A DNA stretch of 64,000 bases. Source: Candidatus Latescibacterota bacterium. Lineage in GTDB: Bacteria; Latescibacterota; UBA2968; UBA8231. Location: NCBI GenBank assembly GCA_964291625.2, contig OZ220089.1, positions 3,936,001-4,000,000 of the forward strand, given 5' to 3'. The position numbers were made by a program, and so were the translations under genes. Below, piece by piece: positions 6,201-21,375 of the stretch. Within the stretch, counting starts at the first letter, position 1. Each line of letters opens with the position of its first letter. A model generated the notes under the pieces. That model made no database searches. It was not told where the DNA came from and saw only the letters and a list, made by a program, of their open reading frames with translations.

Positions 6201-7305
6201 GTGGGCGGCTCTTCAATCTGCCGACAGGGACTCGCTTCTGGACCTGATCGAAGAGAAGCTTACCTACAGGAGCATGAGCGACGGTCAGCGCGTGTATTGG
6301 TTGGCCGCTGGCGTCATCGTTTCTCCAGAGGTCTACGGAGATCTGCTGAGGGAATTCTCAGAGGGTCATGAGGGTCGAATGCGACACTTGACGGCCTTTT
6401 TCTCTCGAGGTTCCCTGAGATCCGTTGTCGATGGACTGGAGAGTCCAGCACTGGAACTGCTCGTCCGCCTTGTGGGAGGCACCGTGGAGCCGGATGAGCA
6501 TTGGCGTGAGGGGCCATCCTTTACTCCAGCAATGAAGGCTTCCCGGCTTGTGGGGGACCTGATTCAGCGGCTCTCCGCTTGCCCGGCCGAGGAGGCCAGC
6601 GATGCGCTGGCCAGGCTTCTCAGGGTCGAGTCCCTATCGCAGTGGCACGACAAGCTGTCCCAAGCGCAGGATGCCCAACGGGTGATCCGCCGCGACGCCG
6701 GCTATCGGCATCCCGGCATCGAGCAGGTATGCCGAACCTTGAACGGCGGCACCCCCGCCAACGCCGCCGACCTCGCAGCTCTCTTGATGGACCAACTGCG
6801 CGAGCTCGCCGTGCAGATCCGGAGGGGGAATACGGACGGCTGGCGTCAGTACTGGAACGTGGATTCGGGCGGGTGCCCCGAGGGTCCGAGACACGAGGAC
6901 GTGTGCCGCGACGCCCTGCTCGATGCCCTGCGACAACGCCTTCCCCTTGCAGTCGACGCCCAGCCCGAGGGGCAGTACGCCAACGACAAGCGCGCCGACA
7001 TCCGCGTATCCTGCCCTGACTTCCAGGTGCCGGTGGAGATCAAGAAGAACGGGCACCTGAAGCTGTGGAGCGCCCTGCGAAATCAGTTGATCGCGCAGTA
7101 CACCAGCGATCCAGCTACCGGCGGATATGGCATCTATCTTGTCTTCTGGTTCGGCAAGGGATGCACTCAGTCGCCCCCTTCCGGGAGCCGCCCTGCTGGT
7201 CCAGAGGAGTTGAGCGAGAGGCTGGCGGCGGAAGCGAATCTGACCCCCGCCGAAGCCCGGAAGATCTCGATCTGCGTCGTCGACGTGAGTCGCCCGGATG
7301 GCTGA
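3265..7305 (+). CDS. NACHT/STAND-type NTPase (~1346 aa) with C-terminal PD-(D/E)xK-like nuclease domain; putative anti-phage protein
   Basis: GTG overlaps upstream stop (GTGA) after GGAGG; GDPGAGKTT, LFIDGLDE, SCREADW, NPLTL, HRHVAEYL; C-terminal E...RADI...VEIK. Confidence 0.8.
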   Translation: MIVSRTCTEISRRDGERPQQEERRSRPLEEFRDTPAYVLVGDPGAGKTTAFETEREALGEKAFLVTARDFLTFDPQHHPEWRGKTLFIDGLDEIRAGSSDVRTPFDQVRGRLDSLGKPRFRLSCREADWLGENDRKHLEAVSPDSSVTVVRLDPLTDEDIARILDARRDIQDADAFIKAAKERRVEGLLPNPLTLEMLADVVGGGSGWPESRMQTFAMACLQMVREHNEERAAAQESGSSPALGELLDAAGRLCAIQLISGGSGYTLHGEGDEEYLSLDECDYDVQVLRFALSTKLFKGVSSNRFAPVHRHVAEYLGGRHLAEVIENGLPACRVIAMMTGEDGTVVTEMRGLSAWLAALSCQIQEDLIQGDPVGVGLYGDIGQFTLDGKRALLQSLKREGARLDSVWTCAGSFGALATSEMEADLREVLLDTDRSRDHQAFTDFVLRFLGEGTPLPDIGGLLIELVRDDRRWPRVNTSALNAFIHNCPDSQDRADGLKSLLADIRAERVSDPDKELFGTLLTHLYPQELLPSEIWEYLSAQGHPELYGTYRRFWDTRLVEQSSDEQLAELLDHLPLRLPRLRTALDTRHLSALPLKLLAGGLELHGDHLEPERLYDWLSAGLLWDEDPQTSRLGAEPIRRIRDWLEEHPESRKAVHAEGLDRSLSSDEFQSFSFTVRKRLYGASPPPDFGLWCLERAVSMANERPLAAGHLLEMAFQAHCHRSGNADLSLEVLQEQARKNVRLEKCLDQLLSAPSTYQEHHQEHLEYQEKRQQAEEREQQQWLDCVRSQKTELLENRAAPQLLYHLATHYFMGPKAIEEQLRGDRGLIDAVLHGLRGVIDRKDVPDLSEILRLRKEKKTHFLDRPFLASIEMAESATDPFEWDDDLVRKAIGFYYCSDLSNHELQWYRRLLGERPETVGQVLVQFALSGFRDGRETDRLSGLLDDPQYATVANQVSLPLLRSFPTRCKVAQIQDLKYLLWAALQSADRDSLLDLIEEKLTYRSMSDGQRVYWLAAGVIVSPEVYGDLLREFSEGHEGRMRHLTAFFSRGSLRSVVDGLESPALELLVRLVGGTVEPDEHWREGPSFTPAMKASRLVGDLIQRLSACPAEEASDALARLLRVESLSQWHDKLSQAQDAQRVIRRDAGYRHPGIEQVCRTLNGGTPANAADLAALLMDQLRELAVQIRRGNTDGWRQYWNVDSGGCPEGPRHEDVCRDALLDALRQRLPLAVDAQPEGQYANDKRADIRVSCPDFQVPVEIKKNGHLKLWSALRNQLIAQYTSDPATGGYGIYLVFWFGKGCTQSPPSGSRPAGPEELSERLAAEANLTPAEARKISICVVDVSRPDG

Positions 7306-7306
7306 A

Positions 7307-7350
7307 CACATGACCGGCCAGAACTTCACCCACTACTTCCTCACCGCCGC
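7307..7350 (+). repeat. Direct-repeat copy of the RM gene 5' end (matches ~7953-7996)
   Basis: cacatgaccggccagaacttcacccactacttcctcaccgccg vs cacatgaccggccaactcttcacccactacttcctcaccgacg. Confidence 0.9.
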
Positions 7351-7524
7351 CGGCGCCAACGAGCGCGCCGACTGGAGCGTAACTCAGGTCCGACCACAGC
7401 CCTTGTGGTGCGATGACGTGGGCCCTTGCGCTTGCGCCTTGATGGCCTGTAGTTCGCCGCTATGGCCCTTACCCCGGAGGGGCCGTTTCGTGTAGCGGGT
7501 CCCAGGCAAGGGGAGGGATGACCC

Positions 7525-7950
7525 ATGGACGAACACACCGTGAAGCGGATCATCGACGAATTGGGCGGCGCCAAGGCCCTGATGGAGGAGATGGACGAGT
7601 ATCAGGAAACCGTCCTTCGCATGAGGAAGGAGCGGCCCCGCCTGGCAGCTGACTACCCGGACAAGTGGGTGGCGATGGGAGGGGAAGGGCTTCTGGCCGC
7701 AGGTGACTCCATGGACCAGGTGCTCGGGCAGCTTGAAGCTCAGGGCGTAGACGGGGCGGACGTCGTGATCGAGTTCAGGGATACGGATCCGCCGCTGCTG
7801 CTCATTGCCAAGCCGCAAGGTAGCAACGAGGGGCTCCCATCGCCGCTCGGGCGCGATGCAATCAACCACTGGTACATGCAGTGTGACCCAACGCTCTCCA
7901 GACTCGATTGCGCCGTCCGGTACGCCGACCATACTCCGGACCCAGCCTGA
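7525..7950 (+). CDS. DUF5678-like small protein, apparently fused to the C-terminal remnant of a retropepsin-like aspartyl protease
   Basis: YPDKWVA motif in first ~95 aa; tail LPSPLGRDAINHW resembles the clan AA LLGRD motif; RBS GGGAGG. Confidence 0.5.
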   Translation: MDEHTVKRIIDELGGAKALMEEMDEYQETVLRMRKERPRLAADYPDKWVAMGGEGLLAAGDSMDQVLGQLEAQGVDGADVVIEFRDTDPPLLLIAKPQGSNEGLPSPLGRDAINHWYMQCDPTLSRLDCAVRYADHTPDPA

Positions 7951-7955
7951 CCCAC

Positions 7956-10900
7956 ATGACCGGCCAACTCTTCACCCACTACTTCCTCACCGACGGCATC
8001 CGGGCCACCCCCGAGTGGCAGGCCTCGGCCGCTGACCCGCAAGCCTTCGCCGCCTTCCGGGAATCTGTCCTCCACCACTACGAAACCCTCGCCCGAGCCG
8101 CCGACCCAAACGAGGCGGTCACCGAGCAGGATCTGATCCGGCCGGCCCTGGAGCTCCTGGGGTGGGCCGACTACCTGCCGCAGCAGAGGACGGCCGGCAA
8201 CGAGGACATCCCCGACCACCTGCTCTTCGGAGACCCCGGCTCCAAGGAGCGGGCCTCCGCGGAGCGCAACGCCGGCGCCCGGGCCGGGCATGCGATCGCC
8301 CTGGAGGAGAGCAAGCGCTTCGGCCTGCCCCTGGACGAGCGCGACAGGGAGGCCGGGTTCCACGCCCGCTCCCCTCACAGCCAGATCCTGCGCTACCTGG
8401 CGACGGCCGAGATCGAGTCGGAGAGCCGGCTGCGCTGGGGGGTGCTTACCAACGGCCGCGTCTGGCGGCTCTACGACTACCGCGCGCGGCCCCGGGCCAG
8501 CGGCTACTTCGAGGCCGACCTGGCGGACCTCCTCGCGCCCGGCCGCGAAGAGGACCTGCGTGTCTTCTACCTGCTCTTCCGCCGGGAGTCGTTCACGCCG
8601 CAGGAAGGCGCCGCCGAGTCGTTCCTCGAAGCGGCCCTGGCCGAGGGCCGCCGCTACGAGGAGCAGGTCGCCCAAGACCTCTCCGGCGTGGTCTTCGAGA
8701 GCGTCTTCCCGGCGCTCGTCCGGGCCCTCGCCGACGCGGCGCAGAAAGGGGGCAGCGGCGCCGGCCTGCCGGAGGTCCACAAGGCAGCCCTGATCTTCCT
8801 CTACCGCCTGCTCTTCGTGCTCTACGCCGAGGATCGGGGGCTGCTGCCGGTCAACGACTCCCGCTACGACGACTACGGCCTGCGCAAGCGGGTGCGCGAC
8901 GACGTGGCCCGCAGGATGGAGGAGAGCGACACCTTCTCGGCGGCGGCCAGCAACTACTACGACCGCCTCCTCAACCTCTTCCGCATCATCGACCAGGGCG
9001 ATCCGTCGATCGGCCTGCCCCCCTACAACGGCGGGCTCTTCGCCCGGGACGCCGCGCCGCTGCTGGAGACGGTCCGCCTTGCCGACGACGACATGGCGCC
9101 CGTCATCCACGACCTGAGCCACGCCAAGGACGCGTACGGGGAGCGCCGCTTCGTCAACTACCGCGACATGTCGGTGCAGCAGCTCGGCTCGATCTACGAG
9201 CGCCTCCTGGAGCGCGAGCCGGTCCGCGGCGGCGACGGCGAGATCGAGATCCGCCCCAACCCTTACGCCCGCAAGGACAGCGGCAGCTTCTACACGCCCC
9301 AGGAGCTGGTGGACCTAATCGTCGAGCGCACGCTGAAGCCGCTGGCCGAGGAGCGTCTCAAGGCTTTCGAGGAGAAGGCCGTCGCCCTCAAGAGCGACCG
9401 CCGACCGAAGGCGCAGCGGCAGGCCGAGCTGCTCAAGCTCGATCCGGCCGAAGCAGTGCTGGATCTCAAGGTGCTGGACCCGGCCATGGGCAGCGGCCAC
9501 TTCCTGGTCACCGCCGTGGACTTCCTCTCCGACTACATCGCCGACCTGGTCGAGTACGTCCCCGCGGTCCCCGAGTGGGTCGACGGCGAGTACGCCTCGC
9601 CTCTGGTCGAGCGGGTAGCTGCGATCCGCGAGGAAATCCTGCGGCGGGCGAAGGAATCGGACTGGGTCCTCGACGAGGCGCAGCTCACCGACCAGGCCAT
9701 CATCCGCCGCATGGTGCTCAAGCGCTGCATCTACGGCGTCGACAAGAATCCGCTCACCGTGGAACTGGCCAAGGTCTCCCTGTGGCTGCACAGCTTCACC
9801 GTGGGCGCGCCCCTCTCCTTCCTCGACCATCACCTGCGCTGCGGCGACTCGCTGGTTGGCATGCGGGTGTCGGAGGCGGTGAAGGACCTTCACCGCCTGG
9901 CCGAGATGTTCGCCCAGAGCGCGATCCAGGGCGCCGAGAACGCCACCGAGGGTATGCAGCGCATCGAGGAGATGTCCGACGCCGACGTGGCCGAGGTGCA
10001 GGAGTCGGCGGAACTGTTCAGCGGGGTGGAGAAGACGACCGCCGACCTGCGCGGCCTGCTCGACATCCTCTGCGGCTGGCGATGGCTGACGGCGGGCATG
10101 AAGAAGAAGGAGTGCGCGGCCTTCGAGGGCCCGCTGGAGGTGACTCTCGGCCGGCATCCGGCAGAGGCCTTCAAGTTGCTGGCCCGGGGGCCGGAGCATC
10201 TCGGCAGCGACCCGCCCAAGTACAAGGAGTGGTCGCGGCTCGTCGAGCGCTGGGACGAGGCCCGGGCCCTGGCCGATCGCGAGGGCTTCCTCCACTGGGA
10301 GGTGGCCTTCCCGGGGGTGTGGCGCCGGTGGCAGGAGAGCCGGCCCCAGGGAGGCTTCGACGCCGTCATCGGGAACCCGCCTTGGGACCAGATTGAGCAG
10401 CCGGAAGTAGAGTGGTTTGCCGGCCGAGACGGACAGATAGCCGGGGCTGTGACTGGAGCCGATCGAAAGGCACAGATCAAGGCAAAGAGAGAATCGGGCG
10501 ACAGGCTGGCTCTGGAGTACGAAACGGTGCGGGATCGGGCTACAGCGATGCGCATGTTCGTACGTGCTTGTGGTGAGTATCCCCTCCTGAGCGAAGGGCG
10601 GATCAACCTCTACTCCCTGTTCGTAGAGCGTGCCATGGGCTTGATCAAGAAGAACGGGTTCGTCGGCCTCCTGACCCCGTCGGGCATCTACTCCGACAAG
10701 ACCGCTTCCCGATTCTTCCAATCCGTCTCGACCGCAGGACGAGTGGGCGGCCTATTCGACTTTGAGAATCGCCGTCTTGGAACCGACCTGCCGCCTTTCT
10801 TCCCGGGCGTGGACTCGCGGTTCAAGTTCTGTGCCCTGGTCTTCGGCGGCGATGAACGGCGATTCGACCAGACTGCGTGTGCGTTTTTCCTGCACGACAC

Positions 10901-12020
10901 GGGTACTCTGGCTGACGAGAACCGCTGCTTTCCATTGACGTCAGCGGACTTCGCCCGGGTAAACCCCAACTCCGGGACCGCACCCGTCTTCCGCACTCGA
11001 CGGGACGCGGAGATCACCCGCCGGATCTACGAACGCCAGCCGGTGCTGGTGGACCGTTCGGGGGATGTGGAGCGCCGCGCATGGCCGGTTCGGTTCATGC
11101 AGGGACACTTCAACATGACCTCGGACTCCCACCTCTTCCAAGCGGCAGGACAGCTCGAAGCCAAGGGCTATTATCCGGTGGAGGGCAATCGCTGGAGGCG
11201 AGGGGAGGAGCTGTATCTTCCGTTGTACGAAGGCAAGATGGTGCAAGCATACGACCACCGGGCAGCAAGCATAACCACCCGTGAAGGAAACCTGTTCCGA
11301 CCCGGACAGCCGAACAGGACCCTTGAAGAAGAACACCAGGACCCTGCCTTCTCACCTCGTCCCCGCTATTGGGTCAACCAGAAAGACAGTGATGTCCTCC
11401 AAAGTGTACGGTGGTCGTTGGCGTTCAAGGACATCACTGCGTCGACGAATGTCCGCACCATGATCGCAGCTGTCATTCCCAAAGTTGGATGCGGGCATAC
11501 ATTGCCAGTCCTTCATCCATCCGATGGCCACTACGACGCCGTGAGCGCAGCCTGTTTCCTTGCCAATCTCAACAGTTTCGCCTTCGACTACGTGGCTCGT
11601 CAGAAGGTGCAGGCGACTCACCTGACCTGGTACACAGTCGAACAGCTTCCTGTCATCCCACCCGTAGACCACGACCGCCCATTCGGCGCCACCACCGCCC
11701 GCGGCCTCGTCCGTGACCACGTCCTCCGCCTCACGTACACCGCCCACGACATGGCCCCCTTCGCCCGCGACCTCGGCCACGACGGCCCGCCCTTCCCTTG
11801 GGACGAGGAGGAACGCCGACACCTCCGCGCACGCCTCGACGCCCTCTACTTCCACCTCTACGGCCTCACCCGGGAGGACGCGGGGTACGTCCTCGACACC
11901 TTCCCCATCGTCCGCCGGGAGGACGAGGCTACCTTCGACCGCTACCGTACCAAGGAGCTGATCCTGGCCTACATGAACGCCTTGGACGCCGGGGATGCGG
12001 AGGCGAGGGTGGCGGTGTAG
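7956..12020 (+). CDS. Type IIG (Eco57I-like) restriction endonuclease-N6 adenine methyltransferase fusion
   Basis: N-terminal PDHLLF...EESK and LTNGRVWRLY; YNGGLF; GSFYTP; motif I LDPAMGSGHF; motif IV GNPPW; C-terminal target recognition domain. Confidence 0.92.
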   Translation: MTGQLFTHYFLTDGIRATPEWQASAADPQAFAAFRESVLHHYETLARAADPNEAVTEQDLIRPALELLGWADYLPQQRTAGNEDIPDHLLFGDPGSKERASAERNAGARAGHAIALEESKRFGLPLDERDREAGFHARSPHSQILRYLATAEIESESRLRWGVLTNGRVWRLYDYRARPRASGYFEADLADLLAPGREEDLRVFYLLFRRESFTPQEGAAESFLEAALAEGRRYEEQVAQDLSGVVFESVFPALVRALADAAQKGGSGAGLPEVHKAALIFLYRLLFVLYAEDRGLLPVNDSRYDDYGLRKRVRDDVARRMEESDTFSAAASNYYDRLLNLFRIIDQGDPSIGLPPYNGGLFARDAAPLLETVRLADDDMAPVIHDLSHAKDAYGERRFVNYRDMSVQQLGSIYERLLEREPVRGGDGEIEIRPNPYARKDSGSFYTPQELVDLIVERTLKPLAEERLKAFEEKAVALKSDRRPKAQRQAELLKLDPAEAVLDLKVLDPAMGSGHFLVTAVDFLSDYIADLVEYVPAVPEWVDGEYASPLVERVAAIREEILRRAKESDWVLDEAQLTDQAIIRRMVLKRCIYGVDKNPLTVELAKVSLWLHSFTVGAPLSFLDHHLRCGDSLVGMRVSEAVKDLHRLAEMFAQSAIQGAENATEGMQRIEEMSDADVAEVQESAELFSGVEKTTADLRGLLDILCGWRWLTAGMKKKECAAFEGPLEVTLGRHPAEAFKLLARGPEHLGSDPPKYKEWSRLVERWDEARALADREGFLHWEVAFPGVWRRWQESRPQGGFDAVIGNPPWDQIEQPEVEWFAGRDGQIAGAVTGADRKAQIKAKRESGDRLALEYETVRDRATAMRMFVRACGEYPLLSEGRINLYSLFVERAMGLIKKNGFVGLLTPSGIYSDKTASRFFQSVSTAGRVGGLFDFENRRLGTDLPPFFPGVDSRFKFCALVFGGDERRFDQTACAFFLHDTGTLADENRCFPLTSADFARVNPNSGTAPVFRTRRDAEITRRIYERQPVLVDRSGDVERRAWPVRFMQGHFNMTSDSHLFQAAGQLEAKGYYPVEGNRWRRGEELYLPLYEGKMVQAYDHRAASITTREGNLFRPGQPNRTLEEEHQDPAFSPRPRYWVNQKDSDVLQSVRWSLAFKDITASTNVRTMIAAVIPKVGCGHTLPVLHPSDGHYDAVSAACFLANLNSFAFDYVARQKVQATHLTWYTVEQLPVIPPVDHDRPFGATTARGLVRDHVLRLTYTAHDMAPFARDLGHDGPPFPWDEEERRHLRARLDALYFHLYGLTREDAGYVLDTFPIVRREDEATFDRYRTKELILAYMNALDAGDAEARVAV

Positions 12021-12096
12021 ATGGGCAAGGTCCCGATGACAGAACAGGGAAGAGGCAGTTCCCCGACCAGCTTTTTCTGAACCATGTTCGTGATCC
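11637..12096 (+). repeat. Repeat copy 1: RM 3' end plus decayed start of a SIR2-like gene
   Basis: Closely matches 12776-13234, continuing past the RM stop into ...gttccccgaccag...aaccatgt.cgtgat. Confidence 0.9.
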
Positions 12097-12122
12097 ACCG
12101 CTAAGGGATGGATGGAGGCGTT

Positions 12123-12674
12123 ATGAGCACAGAAGAGGACGAGAAGCTGTTCAAGAGAATCATCGTCTCGCAGTGGGATCTACAGCAGGCCGAAAGGTGC
12201 GTGACCATGATGCTAGACATCTTAGCCACCGGCAAAGAGAAGGAGAGCAAGGATTGCCTGAAAGCACTACAGACAGCTTGGACCGTAGCCTACTCGCGCC
12301 CATTCATCAAGAATTACGGGTCGGAGATAATGGACCCGATCCTGCCAGAGCTCTTCCTGGGTGATCTGTCGGAGGAGCAGCGGAAGCTGCACCGCTGGAT
12401 ACTCGACACAAGAAACAAGGACCAAGCCCATTCCGATGGGAGAGTAGCCGATATGACGATCCATGTCACAGAGATCCAAGGCATCAAGACAGCCATTCCC
12501 CATCTAAGAAACAGCCTTGCACCTTGGGGTCGGGAATCATTGGAACAGGCTTTGGAGATCATCCAGGCTGTCATAGCCAAGACTGGCGAGGAGCACTGTC
12601 GCATCCAGGAGACCTTCGATGCCACCCCTCGCCGGCTGCCACTGAACCCTCAACAAGGAAGGGCCAAGCCATGA
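12123..12674 (+). CDS. HEPN-like protein, putative defence RNase
   Basis: ATG after GGAGG; AYSRPF and RNKDQAHSD (R-x4/5-H); lower GC than flanks. Confidence 0.6.
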
Positions 12675-13157
12675 TCGATGCCGCTCAGACACTCTGTCTG
12701 TCGACACACCATACAATGGCTTCCGACTTCATGGCTCGACTGAAAGTACAGAGGCAGACTCTGAACCTGTTCATTGTCGAACAGCTCCCCGTCATCGCCC
12801 CCGACGGCTACGACCGCCCTTCGGCACCACCACCGCCCGCGACCTCGTCCGGGACCACGTCCTCCGCCTCACGTACACCGCCCACGACATGGCCCCCTTC
12901 GCCCGCGACCTCGGCCACGACGGCCCGCCTTCCCTTGGGACGAGGAGGAACGCCGGCACCTCTGCGCACGTCTCGACGCCCTCTACTTCCACCTATACGG
13001 CCTCACCCGGGAGGACGCGGGGTACGTCCTCGACACCTTCCCCATTGTCCGCCGGGAGGACGAGGCCGCTTTCGGCCGCTATCGCACCCGCGAGTTGGTC
13101 CTGGCCTATATGAATGCCTTGGCAGCGGGAGACGCGGAGACGAGAGTGGCGGTTTAG
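12671..13157 (+). pseudogene. Frameshifted C-terminal fragment of a second type IIG RM allele (repeat copy 2)
   Basis: [24 protein letters not shown]...LVRDHVLRL...[11 protein letters not shown]...AGDAETRVAV* spread over different frames. Confidence 0.85.
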
Positions 13158-13172
13158 ATAGGCAAGGTTGTC

Positions 13173-16100
13173 ATGACGAAACAACCAAACGACGAGTTCC
13201 CCGACCAGATCTACTTCAACCATGTCCGTGATGCTCTCTGGCGTCGTCCGAGTCAAGCATCGGTGATGATCGGCAGCGGGTTCTCCCGCCATGCCAAGAA
13301 GAACCGTCCCGATGCGTCAGAAATCCCATTGTGGCGAGACTTGACGGATGCACTGGCCAAGGACCTTTCGGCCTCGCAAGACGAGCCAATGGCCGAGGCC
13401 GCTGCCTTGGAGCTTGCACAGGAATACGAGCGGGCCTTTGGCCGGGCGCGTCTCCACCAGTTCCTCATCGAGTCGGTGCGCGACGAGGATTTCAGCCCCG
13501 GTGGGTTCCACGAGAGGCTGTTGAGGTTGCCCTGGCGGGATGTGTATACGACCAACTGGGACACCCTGTTGGAGCGGTGTCCGCATGAACGGGCGTACTC
13601 CCTGGTGACTTCGGCCGATCACCTGCCACTTAGCGCGCCTCCCCGCATCGTCAAATTGCACGGGTCCTTGCCAGGGACCTTCCCTCTGATCGTCACCAAG
13701 GACGACTATGAGGACTATCCGAAGAGGTTTGCTCCCTTCGTCAACACCGTGCGGCAGGCGATGATGGAGACAGTCTTGCTGTTGGTGGGTTTCTCGGGTA
13801 AGGACCCGAACTTCCTGCAGTGGCTGAGCTGGGTTAGAGCGAACCTGCGTGAGAATGCGCCAAGGATCTACTTGGCCGGCTGGCAGGATCTGGAGGAGTC
13901 TTCCCGGCGGGAGTTGATCAGGGAAAGCGTCCTCCCGATCAATCTTCGCCAGCACCCCAAAGCTGCGGACTGGCCCGAGCCTCTACGGCACGCGAAGGCA
14001 TTGGAGTGGGTCCTCCTGTCCTTGGAGCATGGCCAGCCCTATCCACCGGAGGACTGGCCGAGTCATGATGGGCCCAAGCGTCCTGGTGTGCCGAAGGACC
14101 TCAAGCCTGTTCACTGGGTTCGGGTCAGGCACCCGAAGGAGGAGCCATGGGAGAAGCCGCAGGGAGAGCCACACGAACCTGCCTATCTGGAGGAAGTCAG
14201 AGCCCTCCTGCCTGTCTGGAGTGACAATCGGAAGTGCTATCCATCCTGGCTGGTTATGCCCTCCGACGCGGCGCATGAGATTCGCGAAAAGACGGACCAC
14301 TGGCAGCCGATATTCCTCCCTGCGTTGCCGCACCTTGCCGACGGTGCCGAGCGTCTTGGTGCTCTTAATGAGCTGGTATGGCGGCGTGAGGTGGTGCTCG
14401 ATCCGCTATTTGGGGAGCTTGAGGAGGCAGTGGCTGGTGCCCTTGAGGAGATCGACTGCGGACGCCGACTGGTTGGCGGCGAGGAACCGCGGGATCTGGA
14501 TTGGGGCCGTGTTCGGCGGCAGTGGCGGACGCTGGCAGCGGCACTCGTAACGGAGGCCCGATTCAACTTCGACTGGGAGAAGTTCAAGCATTGGATCGAG
14601 CAACTGGTACCGTTCATGGAGGAAGACGACGATCTCTTCGATCGAGTACAGCATGAGAGATGTCTGTGGGAGTTGAATCAGCAGGACTTTGAGCAGCTTG
14701 ACTGCCAGGTAAAGAACTGGGAACCGAGAGGCTCGGACCCCGCTTGGCTGTTGAGGAAAGCGGCACTGTTGGCAGAGCTGGGCCGTAACGAGGAAGCAAA
14801 GGGAATCGCGCTCGGCGTACTGGAGACGGTGCGAAGGTGGCCTGACGGTCCGGCGAGTTTGGCCGGGGTCTCAAGGGAGGCATGGGCCCTCAGGCTCGCT
14901 CACGTGACAGACGATGACCATGAGAGCGCTGGCTCCAGAGTGCGCGAGTTGGAGTCCAGGTTCCGGGAGCTGGCGCAGTGTGGATGCGACCCGACAGATG
15001 AGTTGCGGGCTCACGAGCGGGCAGTCGTGGGCAGCCCTCCGATCGAGAAGCGAAGGCCGTTCGACCTCGGCATGGCAACGGGCGAGGGTTTGAGTTTCAG
15101 CAATGTGGCCAACTACCGGGCTCTTGCGGCCCTGCGCGCGATCCGGTTCGTCGAGGTAGTCGGATCGCCGAGTGCCTTCAGCAGTGACCTCCTCGGCCAT
15201 GCGGCAGAGGCTCTCCGGCCCTACCGCCCGGAATGGTCCTCCGCACTTGCAGTGCGCTGCGCAGACGGAGATGCTGACCGGCGGTTCTCGAGTACTCTGT
15301 CGCGCTGGCGGATTGCATTTCTGGCGCCGGAGTTGACCCGGTCTTTGGCGGAGTCCCAGCGCCGTACGATCGAGTTTGCACTCGAGCAAGTGGGGCGCTC
15401 CACAAGTGCGGTCCAAACGTGGTGGCTCTGGAGCCAGCGCCTGGAGGCGGCGATGGAGGCGTTGTCCCGGTTTGTACTACGCTTGAAACCTGAGGAAGTA
15501 GAGGAAGTGCTGCTGTTGGCGCGGCGCCTCTATGGCGATGCCCGGATTCACCCGCGAATCCAGTACTTCCAGGCCCTGGGGCACCTCCTGCGCAGGTCAT
15601 CTGAAGCGCTACCCCGTTCTCACCAGGCGCAACATGCACTGGAGCTTCTCCGCCTGCCCATCGCGGGAGTCGACGGATTTGGCGGCGACAGCGCAGACAA
15701 CTACGAGGATCCCGGCTACATCATCACCAACGCCGGGAGTTCCGCACGGGACTGCCCGGCCCCCGTCCGGTCCGAGGCCAATGAGAGTGCCTGGGTGGAA
15801 GTTGTCCGCCTCGTCGACAGAGGGCTGAGGACCGGGGGGCCGGCGCGAAAGCGGGCGGCGGTCAGGCTGGTCCTTCTGTCGCGATGGAAGAAGTTGACGC
15901 CAGACGAGAGGCAGCGGCTTGCCGGCTCGCTGTGGGGATTCGGTTTGGATGACTATGGTCTGCCGAGGGACGCGGATCTGCACCCGTGGGTGTTTCTGGA
16001 ACTACCCCAGCCGGAGCCGGACCTTGCGGAGAGTCGGCTCCGCGCCGCATGGGTTCGATCCGCGAGCTGGGAGGACGAGAGCGGGGAGTCGCTGGAGAAG

Positions 16101-16988
16101 GTCCTGGCCGACGCGGGGGCAGCTTTGGAGCGTCTCCCTGAGTACGGAAACAAGATCGAGCTCACGAGTGCCGAGAGGGTATCTCTCCAAGGGGCGCTCG
16201 AACGCTGGGCAGAGATGGGACCCCCGAACATCCGCCCATGGGAGCGGCAGGAGGTGGCTGCTTGGCGGCGAAACCTGAGGACCATATCGACCCTGCTGCT
16301 CGAACTTGAGGTGAGCCGCGGCACGGCGACGGTATTGCTCGCCACGGTGGAGAAGCTAGCCACCGGAAGGAGGCCCGCGTACGAGTTGCTGCCCGGCATC
16401 GTGAAGTCCGACACGGCACTGGGGGACTCGGCCGCCGCGCTGCTGAGGGTTGGGCTCGGCGGTTCGACGCCTGAGCAACGTGTACAAGGATTGAGCGCGT
16501 GCGGAGGTCTGTCTCAGTGGCTTCGAGCCTCTGCATTGGAAGATTGCGGTCTACCAGGGCCGCCTGCCGCTTTGGTGTTCGAAGTCGGCGCGATTATCGC
16601 CGCCCACAGGTGGTTGCTCCTCTCCCCTGCTCTTGAGATCGCCGCTTGGGTGTTCGAAGAAGGAACCGTGGAGCACCGCAGGCTGTTGCAGTCGCCCGTA
16701 CTTTCCGGCCTCGAGTTTCTGCGGCGGGCCCTTGTCTTTCGGGAGGTTTCTCCTCATCCCTACGTCGTCGAGCAGCCCCAGGTCAGCGAAGACGAGGTGG
16801 ACGTGCCTTGGCTCCGCTGGCGCTGCGTGCAATTGGCAAAGGCCATGGACTCCGCCGGCTTCGGAGAGGAGGCGGCTGTGACGGGGTGGCTGGAGGACGC
16901 CGAGAACGACCCCTTGCCAGAATTGCGGTTCGCGGTGGAAGACTGGCACGACCGGCGGGTCTCGGAGAGCGGTCCTGACGCAGAGTAA
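13173..16988 (+). CDS. Large SIR2-domain protein (defence-associated sirtuin, DSR-like NADase)
   Basis: N-terminal MIGSGFS, YTTNWD, KLHG, GFSGKDPNF followed by ~1000 aa probably helical region; defence-island context. Confidence 0.85.
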   Translation: MTKQPNDEFPDQIYFNHVRDALWRRPSQASVMIGSGFSRHAKKNRPDASEIPLWRDLTDALAKDLSASQDEPMAEAAALELAQEYERAFGRARLHQFLIESVRDEDFSPGGFHERLLRLPWRDVYTTNWDTLLERCPHERAYSLVTSADHLPLSAPPRIVKLHGSLPGTFPLIVTKDDYEDYPKRFAPFVNTVRQAMMETVLLLVGFSGKDPNFLQWLSWVRANLRENAPRIYLAGWQDLEESSRRELIRESVLPINLRQHPKAADWPEPLRHAKALEWVLLSLEHGQPYPPEDWPSHDGPKRPGVPKDLKPVHWVRVRHPKEEPWEKPQGEPHEPAYLEEVRALLPVWSDNRKCYPSWLVMPSDAAHEIREKTDHWQPIFLPALPHLADGAERLGALNELVWRREVVLDPLFGELEEAVAGALEEIDCGRRLVGGEEPRDLDWGRVRRQWRTLAAALVTEARFNFDWEKFKHWIEQLVPFMEEDDDLFDRVQHERCLWELNQQDFEQLDCQVKNWEPRGSDPAWLLRKAALLAELGRNEEAKGIALGVLETVRRWPDGPASLAGVSREAWALRLAHVTDDDHESAGSRVRELESRFRELAQCGCDPTDELRAHERAVVGSPPIEKRRPFDLGMATGEGLSFSNVANYRALAALRAIRFVEVVGSPSAFSSDLLGHAAEALRPYRPEWSSALAVRCADGDADRRFSSTLSRWRIAFLAPELTRSLAESQRRTIEFALEQVGRSTSAVQTWWLWSQRLEAAMEALSRFVLRLKPEEVEEVLLLARRLYGDARIHPRIQYFQALGHLLRRSSEALPRSHQAQHALELLRLPIAGVDGFGGDSADNYEDPGYIITNAGSSARDCPAPVRSEANESAWVEVVRLVDRGLRTGGPARKRAAVRLVLLSRWKKLTPDERQRLAGSLWGFGLDDYGLPRDADLHPWVFLELPQPEPDLAESRLRAAWVRSASWEDESGESLEKVLADAGAALERLPEYGNKIELTSAERVSLQGALERWAEMGPPNIRPWERQEVAAWRRNLRTISTLLLELEVSRGTATVLLATVEKLATGRRPAYELLPGIVKSDTALGDSAAALLRVGLGGSTPEQRVQGLSACGGLSQWLRASALEDCGLPGPPAALVFEVGAIIAAHRWLLLSPALEIAAWVFEEGTVEHRRLLQSPVLSGLEFLRRALVFREVSPHPYVVEQPQVSEDEVDVPWLRWRCVQLAKAMDSAGFGEEAAVTGWLEDAENDPLPELRFAVEDWHDRRVSESGPDAE

Positions 16989-17087
16989 CGGTACGGCTCG
17001 ACTGACTCCACCTTCTGGAGCAAGCAGTTGCGGTAGGGTAACGCAGGTGTCAGGGTAGTTTGCCACCGGCAACACTCGGTGCGATCA

Positions 17088-17224
17088 GGGAACGTTCTCG
17101 ACACCTTCACCATCGTCCGCCGGGAGGACGAGGCCGCCTTCGGCCGTTACCCCCGGGAGCTGATCTCCGGCCTACAAGAATGCTTTGGCCGGCAGAAGAT
17201 GCGACACGGTGGTGGCGGCGCAGG
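17088..17224 (+). pseudogene. Third, more decayed copy of the RM gene 3' end
   Basis: [23 protein letters not shown] matches [25 protein letters not shown], then indels. Confidence 0.85.
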
Positions 17225-17300
17225 CCAGCCCTTGACAGGGCCCCGGCCTCGCGAGACGTTAGGCCCCGGACCCGGCTACCATGGACAAGGAGAGGGATGA

Positions 17301-17576
17301 ATGCACTTGAAGGCGGTGGCGCAGACGGCCAGGAACTACGTTGCCGATCTCTTTTCCGACGAAGGGATCATCAACGTCGGGTTGGAAGAGATCGAATTCG
17401 ATGAGCCTGGAGAAAGGTGGATTGTAACCGTCGGGTTCTCTCGCCCATGGGATCAGAAGAACCGCCTCACGGCGGCTCTGGAGCTTCCGGAGCGCTCCTA
17501 CAAGGTCCTTCACATCGCGGACAACGACGGCCGTGTGCTGTCTCTCAAGGACCGCTTGCTGAGCCACCGGAACTGA
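17301..17576 (+). CDS. Small conserved hypothetical protein, probable partner of the PIN protein
   Basis: GLEEIEFDE...WIVTVGFSRPW motif; stop 3 bp before the PIN gene. Confidence 0.65.
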   Translation: MHLKAVAQTARNYVADLFSDEGIINVGLEEIEFDEPGERWIVTVGFSRPWDQKNRLTAALELPERSYKVLHIADNDGRVLSLKDRLLSHRN

Positions 17577-17579
17577 TCC

Positions 17580-18041
17580 ATGCCCCCGTCCGGCTACTTT
17601 GTCGACGCCAGTCTTCTCGTACTTCTGGTGGTAGGCAGTCTGGACCGGGATCTCATTGCGAAGCACCGCCGGCTCCGGGCCTATTCGTCGGATGATTACG
17701 AGATTCTGATCAAGCTGCTCGATCCGGTTGAACGGGTTCTTGTCACGCCGAATACGCTCACCGAGACCTCAAACCTCCTTGCTCAGCACCCAGAGCCGGA
17801 GCGGTCGCGATTCTTCGAGAGGCTCCGGTTCATCATCGGGGAAGCCAGGGAGGTGGTGGTTGCCAGTGTCATCGCATCAGACAACAGCGCATTCGACCGG
17901 TTGGGGCTGACCGACGCGGCTCTCCTCGAAGCGATCACGCCGGACACTCCGCTGGTAACCGTGGATCTCGATCTCTACCTGCAGGCCAACGCGAGCGGGC
18001 AGGAAGTCGCCCTCAACTTCACGCATTTCCGGAACCTGTAG
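17580..18041 (+). CDS. PIN-domain protein
   Basis: FVDASLL, TPNTLTE, LGLTDAA, LVTVDLDL acidic tetrad. Confidence 0.8.
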   Translation: MPPSGYFVDASLLVLLVVGSLDRDLIAKHRRLRAYSSDDYEILIKLLDPVERVLVTPNTLTETSNLLAQHPEPERSRFFERLRFIIGEAREVVVASVIASDNSAFDRLGLTDAALLEAITPDTPLVTVDLDLYLQANASGQEVALNFTHFRNL

Positions 18042-18173
18042 GAAGCCGACAGTGTCCCGGGAGACGGCGGCGCCCGGTTGAACAGGACACCTCACCGACA
18101 GAGTGCCCTTGAGGGCGCACCCACGGATAGCGCGCCGCTGGGTGGTGGGCTCGGGGTCGCTTCCTGAAACCGC

Positions 18174-19799
18174 TTGACTAAGTCCAGGATCGCTGCTACT
18201 CGACCAGGATCCATGCACTCCTGGACGCCCCAAAGGAGGCGAGACCAACCACCGATGGATTCGAGCAAGGCATACACGGCGGCGATGAGAATCCTCCGCC
18301 AAGTGATCCTGTCCGCCCTGGCCCTGGCCGGCTGCGGCTCGGAACCCGGCCGCCCCAGCGGCCCCGAGCCCGGTCCCGGCGGCACCCCGGGGGGCATGAC
18401 CGCCCTGGTCTTTGCGGACTCGGCGCTGGCGGCGGCGGTGGAGGAAGCGGCGGCCGAGACCGGTGACGCGGCCGGGCTGGTCTCACTGACGGCCAAGGAG
18501 CGGGGGATCGCCGACCTGGGCGGCATCGAGCAGCTGACGCGCCTGGAGGTCCTGGACCTGTTCGGCAACGAGATCCGCGACCTGTCGCCGCTGGCGGAAC
18601 TGCAGCGGCTGCGTTACCTCGACCTGGGGAGCAACCGGGTCGAGGAGGTGTCGGCCCTGGGGTCGCTGAAGAGACTGCAGGTCCTCCTGCTCGCCGACAA
18701 CGAGGTGACGGACGTGTCAGCCCTCGCCGGCCTCGACAGCCTGCAGAGCCTGGACCTGAGCCGCAACCCGCTGGGTGCGGGGGCCGAGGCCGACATTGCC
18801 GCTCTGCGGGAGCGCGGCGTGACCGTGGAGCTCGGGGCGCCGGAGGGGACGGAAGGGACGGGCGAGACGGGTGAGGGAGGGCCCCCGGTCATCGTGGGAG
18901 ACCTGCCCATCGTCTTCGTCTCCTCCCGGGGAACGGGCCTGCGCCCGGACTTGGAGATCTATTCCCTCGACCCGGAGACCGGCGAGGTCGTGAACCTGGC
19001 CGCGGGCCTGGCCGAGGCGCCCCTCGCCGAACCGGACAGCGTCTCCCTGCAACGCCGGCGCCATGGCCAGGATCCGGCCCAGTCCCCCGATGGAATGTGG
19101 ATCGCCTTCACCTCGGGACGGGACGGCAACCTGGAGATCTACGTCATGGCCGCCGACGGCAGCGCGCCGAGGAACCTCACCCGCCACGAGGCCCGGGACA
19201 GGAAGCCCGCCTGGTCGCCCGACGGGCGGCGGATCGCCTTCGTCTCCAACCGCCAGGGGGAATCGGAGCAGGGCCTGGGCCCGACCAATGACATCTTCGT
19301 CATGAACGCGGACGGCAGCGGCGTGGAGCAGTTGACCTCAAGTCGGCGGCCCGTCTTCGCCGGCGACCCGGCGTGGTCGCCGGACGGTTCGTCTCTCGCT
19401 TTCCAGATGGTTGACGGCGAGGGCGTCTCCGAGATCTACGTACTGGAGCTGTCCACCGGCGCGTTCTGGCCGGTCACGGACCACGGCGGTGTGTTGTGGG
19501 GGCCTTCGTGGTCACCCGACGGCCACTGGATCGCCTGCATCGAGACCATCGACTCCCAGGAGAGTCACGTGTGGAGGATCTCCGCCGACGGCGGCGAGTC
19601 CCGCCGGCTGACCTCCGGCCAGTTCTGGCGGGCCACCCCCACCTGGTCTCCCAACGGCGCCCGCATCGTCTTCGCCCGGGAGGAACGGCCCGGCGGGAGT
19701 TCCTCCGACCTCTACGCCATCCCGGCCGACGGGGGGGCCGGCGAGCAGCTCACCGACGATCCGGCCGTGGACGAGCACCCGTCCTGGGCGCCCTTCTAG
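18174..19799 (+). CDS. Lipoprotein with leucine-rich repeats and TolB/PD40 beta-propeller (paralog 1; start may be 18255 or 18285)
   Basis: Lipobox LALAGC; LEVLDLFGNEIRDLSPL LRRs; repeated PAWSPDG. Confidence 0.85.
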   Translation: MTKSRIAATRPGSMHSWTPQRRRDQPPMDSSKAYTAAMRILRQVILSALALAGCGSEPGRPSGPEPGPGGTPGGMTALVFADSALAAAVEEAAAETGDAAGLVSLTAKERGIADLGGIEQLTRLEVLDLFGNEIRDLSPLAELQRLRYLDLGSNRVEEVSALGSLKRLQVLLLADNEVTDVSALAGLDSLQSLDLSRNPLGAGAEADIAALRERGVTVELGAPEGTEGTGETGEGGPPVIVGDLPIVFVSSRGTGLRPDLEIYSLDPETGEVVNLAAGLAEAPLAEPDSVSLQRRRHGQDPAQSPDGMWIAFTSGRDGNLEIYVMAADGSAPRNLTRHEARDRKPAWSPDGRRIAFVSNRQGESEQGLGPTNDIFVMNADGSGVEQLTSSRRPVFAGDPAWSPDGSSLAFQMVDGEGVSEIYVLELSTGAFWPVTDHGGVLWGPSWSPDGHWIACIETIDSQESHVWRISADGGESRRLTSGQFWRATPTWSPNGARIVFAREERPGGSSSDLYAIPADGGAGEQLTDDPAVDEHPSWAPF

Positions 19800-19812: not shown

Positions 19813-21105
19813 TCAGGGGGCGAAGGCCCGGCTCCCTTTGCGGTCCCCGGCATCGATGCGGTCGAGCTTCTCGCTCAGGGCGATCATCACCTCCTGCGTC
19901 TCCGTCACGCGCGACTCCAGGGCGGCGAGGCGGTCTCCGAAGCCCGGGGAGCCCGACGCGGAGAGCCGGCGGGCGAGGTAGACGGCCACGCCTCCGACGG
20001 CCAGACCCAGGAGGCCGACGCCGAGCACCATCAGCCAGTCGTTCTCCTCAGCCACAGGATCGGTCCGGCGCGGGACCTCCCCGTAGCGCAGGACGAACGG
20101 GCCGGCCTCGGTCCCCGGGTAAGCCCGGGCGCGAGCGGTCTGGTTCAGCACTCGGTCCAACCCGGATGAGTGGGGGCGCCCCGCGGCTCTCTCGATCGTC
20201 GAGATCCACTGCTCCGGGTGGTCGCTGAGCCAGCGATCCAGGTAGGCCTTCAAGGCCCCCGCGTCGAACCCCGCCGACCAGTCCTCCGGCGCCAGCACGA
20301 GCCGCCCGACCCGCCCGTCCCCCATCATCTTCAGCGTCACCGGGGGTCCCCAGGGGACCCAGGAAGCCATCGAGACCCCGTGCAGGGGCGAGGGCCTCGG
20401 GCCGCGGAAATCCGCCGGTAGCCCATCGCCGTCGACGACGACCACGTCGAACCCGATCGCCATGCCGCCTTCCAGGCGGACCGGCCTGGAAGGAAGGGGG
20501 TGCATCACCGAGGGACCGCTCCGCGGATAGATCGGCTCCGAGGACCGCACCTGCAGGCTCCACTCGTAGGTGGTGAGGTCGCCCCGGCGCTGCCAGGCCC
20601 CGAGCGATCTCCGGTCGCTCCGGAGGTTGCGGTGGACGCCTCTCCTGTCGAAGGACGGGTAGGTCTCGTATCCCGGCACCAGGGCGTACTGGATCGTAGG
20701 GCGTTCCTCCTCCTGCAGCGCCGAGACGTAGATCTCGCAGGCGTCCGTCCGGTGCATGGCGCCTGTCGGATAGAGCACGTCGTCGCGCACCTCCACGGCC
20801 ACGTGCAGCAGCTGCTCCCCGGGATCGTACCCGACCCGGAAGGAGGGGCTGAGGTCCTCGCTGGTGTCGAGGTCCGTCAGCTCGGTGTCGGTGTCGCCGT
20901 AGGCTCCGAACTCGTTCCGGATCGGCAGGGCCGGCAGGTCGCGGGGCCAATCGGAGAGATCACCGTCCACGGTGATGCCCGTGACGGGCAGGGCCAGGGC
21001 CAGGTGGTCGGGCAACTCGGTCCCCGCGGAGAGGGGCGGACCGGCGGCGGTCAGCCACGCCAGGGCGAGGGCGAGGGAGAAGGGGAGGGGACGGGGTCTG
21101 GGCAT
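19813..21105 (-). CDS. Secreted protein with CBM9-like/DOMON sugar-binding domain and C-terminal membrane anchor
   Basis: Signal peptide MPRPRPLPFSLALALAW; ITVDGDLSDW, VAVEVRDD, IGFDVVVVDGD; C-terminal TM helix. Confidence 0.65.
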   Translation of the reverse strand: MPRPRPLPFSLALALAWLTAAGPPLSAGTELPDHLALALPVTGITVDGDLSDWPRDLPALPIRNEFGAYGDTDTELTDLDTSEDLSPSFRVGYDPGEQLLHVAVEVRDDVLYPTGAMHRTDACEIYVSALQEEERPTIQYALVPGYETYPSFDRRGVHRNLRSDRRSLGAWQRRGDLTTYEWSLQVRSSEPIYPRSGPSVMHPLPSRPVRLEGGMAIGFDVVVVDGDGLPADFRGPRPSPLHGVSMASWVPWGPPVTLKMMGDGRVGRLVLAPEDWSAGFDAGALKAYLDRWLSDHPEQWISTIERAAGRPHSSGLDRVLNQTARARAYPGTEAGPFVLRYGEVPRRTDPVAEENDWLMVLGVGLLGLAVGGVAVYLARRLSASGSPGFGDRLAALESRVTETQEVMIALSEKLDRIDAGDRKGSRAFAP

Positions 21106-21375
21106 GGTTGCTCTCCGGGCGGTCACTTGGGCGGTCCGCAGCGGACCCGATCCAACTGGGCTGCCAATACCTATCCTGCAATCCTGCAGGTCAGTCAAGT
21201 GCTGATCGCCGGTCCATTGCCCTGGGCGAAGCGGCCCGAGGGACCGCGCAGGGCCGGCCGCCACCGCCTGCGCCGGGACGGCCGCGAGCGGGGCCGGCCG
21301 CTGCCAGCGGCGTATACTTGCAACCGGCTCGCGTCGGCCGACTCCGTGCAGACGCGGATTCAAAGGACCCAGGTG

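Follow-up and report, generated by a model that had tools for sequence, protein, structure and literature searches.

Decayed copies of the 3′ end of a type IIG-like restriction gene separate putative defence genes in a Latescibacterota genome and recur in related loci

Arrays in which an intact gene is followed by detached copies of its own 3′ end have been described in Rhs loci, in the orphan cdiA-CT/cdiI modules of contact-dependent inhibition (CDI) and in the type VI secretion system (T6SS) of Vibrio cholerae. As these arrays are presented in PMC5361080, the displaced 3′ fragments lie on the same strand as the intact gene, each with genes of its own, newer modules stand closer to the intact gene than older ones, and the arrays form without an integrase. 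That account proposes homology-facilitated illegitimate recombination (HFIR) anchored in the conserved part of the gene, and sequential displacement of this type is its model for the T6SS and Rhs arrays. A second described process is insertion with long target duplication (Nobusato, Furuta and Kobayashi), in which inserts of 0.6 to several kb are flanked by direct repeats of tens to hundreds of bp that are single-copy in the empty genome. The description in PMC2853133 links such inserts to restriction-modification genes, without transposase or integrase, and gives the mechanism as not known. Here we analyse a stretch of 64,000 nucleotides (nt) from Candidatus Latescibacterota bacterium (GenBank assembly GCA_964291625.2, contig OZ220089.1, positions 3,936,001 to 4,000,000), hereafter the window, in which the 3′ end of an intact type IIG-like gene of the restriction-modification class (hereafter RM) occurs three times, each time in front of different genes of predicted defence function. 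The source genome is a metagenome-type assembly with an estimated contamination of 6.6%.

The RM gene spans positions 7956-12020 and encodes a fused methyltransferase/restriction-type protein of 1354 amino acids (aa). Like every gene between 1080 and 19799, it is on the plus strand. Self-BLAST of window positions 1-24000 returned four repeat pairs, all direct, and a separate repeat search recovered the same pairs. The strongest pair links 11585-12094 (copy A, which comprises the RM tail with its stop codon and, after a spacer of 15 nt, a stub of the dsr2 gene) to 12724-13232, with 84.8% identity over 514 columns, 9 gaps and E = 1.5e-159. Both members match a third copy at 17088-17218, from 11883-12015 (80.0%, E = 6e-25) and from 13020-13152 (79.3%, E = 8e-24). 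The fourth pair, 7307-7349 and 7953-7995 (90.7% over 43 nt, E = 3e-10), comes from the 5′ end of the gene. The decay of the 3′ copies is graded: copy A is intact; remnant B, the displaced RM 3′ end at 12677-13157, is 85% identical and carries two frameshifts, since tblastn reads it in three frames (12677-12817, 12820-12930 and 12924-13154); remnant C (17088-17218) is the most decayed, at 80% identity, with indels and without a stop codon. The A/B repeat extends 77 nt beyond the RM stop.

The cargo differs from one 3′ copy to the next. Behind copy A lies an AbiU2-like HEPN candidate (12108-12674), remnant B abuts, with a 15-nt spacer, a Dsr2-like SIR2 defence gene (13173-16988), and remnant C precedes a gene for a 91-aa protein (17301-17576) and a 153-aa PIN-like candidate (17580-18041). 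The cargo is packed against the next remnant with a gap of ~3-26 nt in the window, 5 nt in locus L019 and ~40 nt in L057 and L090, three of the related loci described below. An earlier reading made from the sequence only had described three RM 3′ ends in the same orientation, the middle one frameshifted and the last more decayed, each followed by different cargo, and two 5′ ends with a DUF5678 gene between them. The two repeat searches and the Pfam match to DUF5678 bear out this layout. That reading had missed a 59-nt frameshifted stub of the start of the Dsr2 gene (12036-12094), which copy A carries in front of the HEPN-like gene. Logan contigs of run X6, which may be the source sample and hence not independent, bridge 6960-7984 (0 differences), 11738-12882 (19) and 12996-18333 (0). 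The repeat layout is no artefact of one assembler.

Two relatives of the same genus, G9 and G8, show what lies behind RM elsewhere. The context behind the G9 RM is the context behind remnant C: 17092-17346 aligns to the G9 tail and 131 nt beyond it, and 17292-17346 is 94.5% identical to G9. Remnant C is joined, in other words, to the native downstream context of the genus. As judged from this alignment, the ~5.1 kb between the RM stop and remnant C would be either extra in the window or lost in G9. We built a maximum-likelihood tree of the last ~440 nt of RM tails (30 rows), in which tail B falls outside the clade formed by the intact tails of the window, G9 and G8 (support 100/98); L029 comes next, and tail B lies inside the clade that includes L029. 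This means that tail B is no recent copy of tail A; the idea of a fresh copy of the resident tail finds no support. By its position, tail B would either predate the split of the three species or stem from another allele. Remnants are always placed with alleles of their own taxon. We also looked for a donor allele of tail B: the left portion of this tail shares 82% identity with L041, as against 75% with its own tail (61-65% and 47% at the protein level), but the ~110 nt compared are too few for a donor to be named.

We searched for relatives of RM with its C-terminal 449 aa as query and found at least 578, of which the best 80 loci (61-78% aa identity) were used. They come from metagenome-assembled genomes labelled as at least eight phyla or classes, and loci from related genomes are not independent. 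A second set held 20 loci from genomes of the window's order, one of which duplicates L085, leaving 19 new loci. Open reading frames (ORFs) outside the window were called by a simple longest-ORF rule. When the last 700 nt of each RM gene were compared by BLASTN with their own locus (E ≤ 1e-10), extra tail copies appeared in 13 of the 80 loci (L019, L023, L025, L031, L038, L057, L059, L061, L064 with two, L072, L088, L090 and L094). Weak matches of 35-46 nt in four more (L033, L039, L085 and L095) bring the number to 17. The window RM protein, used as a tblastn query, found extra C-terminal pieces in 8 of the 80 loci (9 pieces). Four of the 19 new loci also carry remnants (L126, L129, L130 with two and L131 with three), and L137 has a weak 37-nt match. 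All remnants share the strand of RM and lie downstream of it; there are no inverted and no upstream copies. An extension of some remnants leftwards into the variable segment of RM, as read by tblastn for remnant B (from 12500), L038 and L031, was rejected because the extra parts alone gave no match.

These counts also bear on where the events strike. Remnants of the 5′ end occur in just two of the 80 other loci (L021 and L038), against 13-17 for the 3′ end, and this asymmetry gives no support to the earlier proposal that both RM termini act as homology arms. The last 500 nt of RM take part in direct repeats of 60 nt or more in 12 of the 80 loci, the remaining 3.5 kb of the gene in none. A crude control found direct repeats in the flanks as well (132 pairs upstream and 123 downstream of RM, in 32 loci each), many of which are repeat-domain genes or intergenic repeats. 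Measured from the RM stop, remnants begin anywhere between -22 and about -480 nt. Such a spread speaks against a fixed crossover site and makes site-specific recombination unlikely.

What follows RM changes from locus to locus: the first ORF after RM falls into 69 sequence clusters in 79 loci. The fixed gene order that the earlier reading had named as a ground for refuting it is thus not what related loci show. Its commonest Pfam families are Fic (4), AAA_15/AAA_21 (3), BrnT (3), AbiEi (2), Gp49 (2) and nucleotidyltransferase (2). Between RM and the remnant we found an Mrr-type nuclease (L019), Gp49 with HTH (L031), BrnT with FRG/TPR (L090), HEPN (L023 and L064), MNT (L057 and L061), DUF4258 (L025), Vsr with a C5 methylase and HATPase (L038), SocA/Panacea (L059), TPR-GreAB-C-PIN (L088), AAA_15/AAA_21 (L094), ThiF (L126), a Dsr2-like SIR2 gene (L129) and HTH (L130). 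By their families, most of these genes are predicted to act in toxin-antitoxin systems, restriction or abortive infection. For the end of the L031 cargo, a truncated HigB-type toxin gene was considered and dropped, there being no Pfam match for L031:12187-12528. Among the 49 cargo ORFs none matches Phage_integrase, Resolvase or rve. Transposase families are matched by three ORFs, two of L094 and one of L088, which in either locus belong to a long island. The window itself has no match to PF00589, PF00239, PF00665, PF01609 or PF00872 (Phage_integrase, Resolvase, rve, DDE_Tnp_1 and Transposase_mut); the statement that it lacks an integrase, transposase or invertase holds for these families, other transposase families not having been searched.

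Related loci also provide empty sites. The DNA behind the remnant of L031 is collinear with the DNA right after the intact RM in L041, L040 and L090 (80% over ~1.5 kb), and further collinear pairs of remnant and empty loci are L019 with L016, L038 with L088, L057 with L037, L064 with L023 and L061, and L129 with L041 and L090. Relatives whose intact RM runs directly into the sequence that elsewhere stands behind a remnant thus serve as empty sites. Deletion between the repeats would give identical empty sites, so the direction of each event is one that we infer. L031 has ~45 nt of native post-stop DNA left behind its intact copy; toxin-antitoxin cargo comes next, and after that a remnant that starts at -203. 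The ~250-nt target (-203 to +45) is duplicated around the insert and single-copy in L041 and L040, and the copies differ in range, copy 1 running to +45 and copy 2 stopping at -28. L129 is a second, independent case, where RM is followed by Dsr2, a tail remnant and the native genes BrnT and FRG/TPR. Dsr2 thus lies between RM and a tail remnant both in the window, where the native gene is the small one, and in L129, so that the same cargo is found in two contexts. Its protein in the window is 74% identical to that of L129 and 72% to that of L029 at the aa level.

Two further observations concern these loci. A unit made of tail, MNT, HEPN and tail remnant is common to three Caldilineaceae loci (L064 18465-19766, L023 11329-12294 and L061 11362-14688), and in L064 it stands 7 kb from RM, pushed there by later cargo. 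An element of ~50 nt behind the RM stop, with a TTGACA-like hexamer, is conserved in L041, L040, L090, L055 and L085 and is visible by eye at ~17225-17270 of the window; it occurs once per locus, and at its end the cargo sequences separate at once, in three or more different ways.

The RM gene combines a very variable segment with a conserved end. Mean pairwise nt identity among 79 RM alleles is lowest at nt 3301-3600 of the gene (45-54%) and reaches 75-82% at nt 3701-4000, which places a variable segment at nt ~3300-3650 and a conserved tail at ~3700-4065. Pairwise alignments of alleles often break at ~3300-3650 and resume in the tail. For example, the window RM is 52-65% identical to that of L029 in the variable segment and 96% identical at nt 3801-4000. 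The variable segment is probably the target-recognition segment. A tail conserved just behind the most variable segment makes a good homology anchor. The protein has the N6-adenine methyltransferase domain (Eco57I/MmeI type) in one long polypeptide that characterizes type IIG enzymes: Pfam returned Eco57I (2.6e-19) and N6_Mtase (1e-7), with MmeI_hel and MmeI_Mtase below their cut-offs, and PADLOC returned DrmMI as the best model (324 bits) and REase_MTase_IIG with up to 238 bits. No nuclease family matched residues 1-290 in the Pfam, PADLOC and NCBIfam scans. RM is thus best described as a predicted type IIG-like restriction-type enzyme. Membership of DISARM was rejected despite the DrmMI match, as PADLOC found no Drm partner and the ORFs scanned in 1-29.5 kb have no match to the drmA helicase, drmB (DUF1998) or drmC (PLD).

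The layout resembles that of the Rhs, CDI and T6SS arrays in its essential trait, since same-strand 3′ fragments, each with its own gene, are present in the window, in 13-17 of the 80 loci and in 4 of the 19. It differs from them in several respects. The gene is an RM-type enzyme and not a secreted toxin, the displaced piece is the conserved tail and not a variable toxin tip, the cargo consists of unrelated defence and toxin-antitoxin genes in place of cognate immunity genes, and the pattern spans several phyla. No polymorphic toxin tip with a cognate immunity gene was found at the window. As the cargo is not cognate immunity, there is no obvious selection to retain old cargo. A limited literature search on C-terminal displacement together with restriction-modification, and on RM or defence islands of sponge symbionts, returned no paper on this pattern; the supplementary figures of PMC2853133, which may show similar cases, were outside its scope.

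The explanation we lean towards, with only modest confidence, is repeated homology-anchored one-sided illegitimate recombination, i.e. 3′-end displacement. On this view, the last ~400 nt of RM, a conserved stretch in a type IIG-like gene that many bacteria share, would be a hot spot of recombination, and the array would consist of the scars stacked up there. Donor DNA from a relative would bring an RM gene together with whatever followed it there, and would pair with the resident RM through the long conserved gene, while its far, non-homologous end would be joined illegitimately inside or just after the resident tail. An intact RM would be retained, with new cargo now behind it, and the old 3′ end of the resident, with the old downstream genes attached, would be pushed distally and decay. 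Repeated rounds would produce the order RM, dsr2 stub, AbiU2-like HEPN, tail B, Dsr2, tail C, and small gene with PIN-like gene. A mirror-image event at the 5′ end would produce the DUF5678 segment with its 52-nt duplication. The underlying process would be HFIR. No remnant is longer than ~510 nt, and this may be because long direct repeats are quickly lost. The genome encodes a Ku homologue (G000:C1:916076-916618), a family found in one of 14 control genomes, so end-joining may be available for the illegitimate joins. It also encodes ComEC and DprA homologues, which, like Ku, only shows that the parts exist.

Several results weigh against this explanation, and we gather them here. We saw neither a donor sequence nor a recombination intermediate. 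An imported 3′ part would leave a mosaic break in RM, and the intact window gene shows none against G9 or G8: it is 84-95% identical to the G9 gene per 200 nt along its whole length, with the same type of variable segment (the proteins are 92% identical to G9 and 89% to G8). This counts against a recent import, except from a closely related donor. The stretch of native DNA (~45 nt) kept between the RM stop and the cargo in L031 looks more like a duplicated target than like a displaced end, and so do the repeats that run past the RM stop, for 77 nt in the window and for at least 200 nt in L061. In L029, 2.5 kb separate RM from Dsr2 without any duplication, which means that the hot spot is not always scarred. 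In the tree, the remnant of L129 is placed beside the intact tail of the same locus (94/71) and that of L126 has no resolved position, which would also fit in-situ duplication. ComEC and DprA are near-universal (10 and 11 of the 14 control genomes), hence their presence is no sign of competence. Finally, the remnant rate of 15-20% was obtained for the RM family alone, and other genes that border variable regions may have a similar one.

These results allow us to revise the mechanism first proposed from the sequence, in which conserved RM termini serve as homology arms for repeated capture and replacement of genes, in an integron-like accordion run by homologous recombination. One part of it stands: the conserved tail marks a recurrent insertion point, as the remnants elsewhere and the empty sites indicate. 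Excision did not find support. In Logan contigs of runs X6, X1, X2 and X4 over 6500-18500 there is no joint readable as excision, although contigs cannot show rare forms, and many of the joints seen are other RM alleles (depth 45-110, against ~12-16 for this organism) or have short sides. Homologous recombination alone does not account for remnants that start anywhere from -22 to ~-480 nt, since at least one join per event looks illegitimate. The comparison with integrons captures the ordered stack of small, co-oriented and promoter-poor cassettes behind a fixed platform, with the new ones proximal. It fails in that there is no intI and no attC-type repeat here, no excision or circle was seen in contigs, which cannot show rare variants, the repeats are only pieces of the platform gene, and the junctions are not fixed. 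Domain swapping shares with this locus a hypervariable segment between a conserved body and a conserved tail, but when it proceeds by two homologous crossovers it leaves no duplicated tail and brings no cargo. The minimal mobile elements of Neisseria, which lie between conserved genes, are cassettes that move by homologous recombination in their flanks and leave no duplicated flank.

Other mechanisms could generate parts of the pattern. Circles made of a tail and its cargo might be excised by homologous recombination and re-inserted by a single Campbell-type crossover, in a reversible accordion that needs no integrase. Much of the layout would follow from this cycle: a single crossover of homology H with cargo X yields a direct H-X-H arrangement, as seen; the repeats, at 130-510 nt and 80-97% identity, are usable RecA substrates; in the window and in L061 they extend across the RM stop into the beginning of the following gene, as expected if the homology came from a junction fragment; the cargo is often tightly packed against the next remnant; and the state of G9 is what recombination between tails A and C would produce. 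Still, we find it doubtful, for the contigs contain no circle or deletion junction of this organism (with the limit on rare forms given above), the two copies of a pair often differ in range, as in L031, tail B falls outside the clade of the genus's intact tails, and the origin of the first circle would still require an illegitimate join. An alternative that we regard as unlikely, in spite of some well-fitting cases, is insertion with long target duplication, where a staggered break or a template switch near the RM stop captures foreign DNA and the fill-in duplicates the target. The DUF5678 insert, whose 52-nt direct repeats exceed 30 bp and are single-copy in G9, and the ~250-nt duplicated target of L031, with L041 and L040 as empty sites, both look like the published cases, which have repeats of 30-420 bp and no mobility genes in the account of PMC2853133; the Ku homologue, rare in the control genomes, would also suit it. 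Against this, fresh copies would be identical, yet tail B branches off before the intact tails of the three species separate, so that the array would have to have been lost in the common ancestor of G9 and G8. Target duplication does not alone explain why the same 400-nt tail was struck in many phyla. In the cases set out in PMC2853133 it is RM genes that are inserted, at scattered targets, whereas here the RM end is the repeated target; homologues of both R and M, which its authors look for in the insert, are not found in the inserts of the window, and RM-type cargo is restricted to L038 and L019.

The remaining explanations have little in their favour. The remnants might be kept because they are useful, as silent 3′ cassettes for gene conversion or as carriers of promoters or ribosome sites for the cargo. 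The hypervariable segment just upstream of the tail, the substitution of recognition domains known for type IIG genes (as mentioned in PMC2853133) and the conserved post-stop element with its TTGACA-like hexamer point that way. We consider it very unlikely, because the remnants come from the conserved tail without the variable segment, they are frameshifted and, in the window, more decayed the farther they lie from RM, and predicted promoters in 7200-18200 are at expectation (one site against 1.2 expected, none in a tail), neither promoters nor terminators exceeding the shuffled expectation. Integrating elements that carry a replacement 3′ end leave a restored gene end and a displaced end on the two sides of the insert, and they depend on an integrase and on a fixed core site. 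If a site-specific recombinase from elsewhere acted on an attachment site in the RM tail, it would produce such a layout, with the gene end restored and the displaced end beyond the insert, and the genome does have four matches to Phage_integrase (PF00589). All four are outside the window, the nearest ~123 kb beyond its end; only tail repeats flank the cargo, and neither an integrase or resolvase in the insert (0 of 49 cargo ORFs) nor a fixed crossover core (given the spread of remnant starts) was found, which leaves this explanation with hardly any credit. That the repeats are an assembly artefact or chance similarity can be practically dismissed. The assembly is of metagenome type with some contamination, and the same samples hold many related RM alleles, with depths of 200-700 over the conserved parts. 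Nevertheless, the E-values (1e-159 to 3e-10) speak against chance, a divergence of 15-20% between copies rules out collapsed repeats, X6 contigs bridge every junction, two of them without a difference, and the pattern is found in many independently assembled genomes. The possibility raised in the earlier reading, that long reads would show the copies to be artefacts of collapsed strains, thus finds no support in the divergence of the copies or in the contigs.

The cargo genes of the window differ in how well they can be assigned. The first encodes a 188-aa protein (12108-12674, with a likely ATG start at 12123) that itself has no Pfam, PADLOC or NCBIfam match. We identified 194 relatives by phmmer, and in 40 of them, aligned, R102 and H108 of an Rx5H motif are invariant; two of the 40 match PF18734 (HEPN_AbiU2). 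The Atlas cluster that the protein matches is named HEPN AbiU2-like, with a very high score. An AlphaFold2 (AF2) model with pLDDT 90 gave a VIA Z score of 9.2 to the HEPN toxin 7ae2_A, tied with unrelated helical bundles, and Foldseek returned no match for it at E ≤ 0.001. A separate search for homologous proteins returned only the protein itself, and the 80 RM loci contain no homologue. The assignment as AbiU2-like HEPN has moderate support: the earlier identification as an HEPN-like gene is upheld through the motif and families of the relatives and not through a match of the gene itself. The second cargo gene (13173-16988) matches SIR2_2 (7.9e-19), the PADLOC model Dsr2 (455 bits, residues 13-954) and the NCBIfam model Dsr2 (473 bits against a cut-off of 1400). 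With the latter score under the cut-off, we call it Dsr2-like.

The third cargo consists of two genes. The 91-aa protein (17301-17576), with no family match in Pfam, PADLOC or NCBIfam, is possibly an antitoxin. Its neighbour (17580-18041) has no match in the same three databases either, and its single-sequence AF2 model (pLDDT 38) is unusable. An Atlas cluster at rank 22, again with a very high score, has PF01850 PIN in 44% of its members, which provides a lead to a PIN protein. Locus L082 holds homologues of both genes as a pair, with 39% aa identity for the first and 59% for the PIN-like one. The two ORFs described earlier behind the third tail are thus there, and the PIN assignment of the second is at present a lead that no profile match confirms. 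In G9, a 394-aa ORF on the minus strand (L012:12011-13195) consists of the first ~15 codons of the 91-aa gene fused to the 3′ part of the WD40/Big_1 gene that in the window encodes 2118 aa; this fusion ORF is the product of a ~8.5 kb deletion.

Upstream of RM, the window carries further genes of defence type. A gene of the HepT-like family of HEPN toxins (1080-1844; Pfam HepT-like_2, E = 1.5e-31) marks the left edge of the island and is kept in both G9 (81% aa identity by tblastn) and G8; in G8, it stands directly before RM, with no EruA. The RM region is directly preceded by a NACHT-type gene for a 1689-aa protein (2236-7305), which matches the NCBIfam model antiphage_EruA (NF058535) with 925.6 bits where the cut-off is 1000; the alignment pairs model positions 9-1318 with residues 362-1685, and an additional ~360 N-terminal residues lie outside the model. 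Its score being under the curated cut-off, we call it EruA-like. A literature search on EruA and HyoA returned no antiphage paper. Full-length EruA-like homologues, with 48-67% aa identity, end less than 1 kb upstream of RM in G9 and in 7 of the 80 loci (L029, L022, L084, L025, L067, L056 and L031). An EruA-like gene lies 3 kb upstream of RM in L055, and L028 has an EruA-like remnant. EruA-like and RM may work as a pair.

The 5′ repeat lies at this boundary. Its first copy (7298-7349) holds the EruA stop codon and the first ~40 nt of the RM frame, a stub that beyond 'FLT' shows no further likeness to any RM allele. Between the copies is an inserted segment of ~595 nt (7350-7944) with the DUF5678 gene (7525-7950, by Pfam). 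The segment is missing in G9, where EruA abuts RM and the 52-nt flanking repeat is single-copy, and in runs X2 and X4 contigs lead from 7295 to 7948 and from 7305 to 7962, hence from EruA straight into RM. Only residues 1-94 of the DUF5678 protein match homologues, and those in L017 and L055 are encoded downstream of RM, not upstream. The frame continues for 47 codons beyond the end of the homologues (7804-7950). As it ends only at the duplicated EruA stop codon, this C-terminal extension is a by-product of the insertion.

The island as a whole has a GC content of 0.54-0.69, against 0.70-0.76 in the flanks, and the lowest bin (0.54) is that of the 188-aa ORF. Beyond the last cargo, profile searches identified a 541-aa protein with LRR and a PD40 beta-propeller (18174-19799) and a giant WD40 and Big_1 protein of 2118 aa with internal repeats (20500-26856). 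In G8 the giant gene is upstream of RM, hence the region has been rearranged between species. A 61-nt match to the RM tail (79%) on a second contig of the genome (G000:C2:847138-847198) may belong to a paralogous RM gene, and several genomes of the window's order have two or three copies of the RM family. Among loci L016-L095, the family is held by Nitrospirales, Latescibacterota, Rhodothermales, Caldilineaceae, Dehalococcoidia, Entotheonella, Spirochaetia, Gammaproteobacteria and others, and related RM contigs are present in runs labelled sponge metagenome. This distribution suggests that the RM family spread horizontally over a wide range of bacteria within one kind of habitat.

The assembly of defence islands is mostly explained by mobile elements and integrases, and the scars left in the RM tail would be a recurrent alternative that is readable from sequence. 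A long, conserved and horizontally shared defence gene would serve as the homology anchor, and each acquisition would leave a datable scar, so that the order of arrival of defence genes could be reconstructed. The rate of scars in the two sets of loci makes the idea testable by comparative genomics. If it is general, the C-terminal displacement logic of polymorphic toxin loci would extend to restriction-type genes, and duplicated gene ends would offer a simple search for insertion hot spots and for new defence and toxin-antitoxin cargo in uncultured bacteria. A bolder idea, which we put forward as speculation, is that the RM tail and the ~50 nt behind it form a shared landing pad that needs no recombinase: units of tail and cargo would travel between genomes, even between phyla in the same habitat, dock at the resident RM and be lost by recombination between tails. 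If this were true, a common defence gene would double as an attachment site for the exchange of other defence genes.

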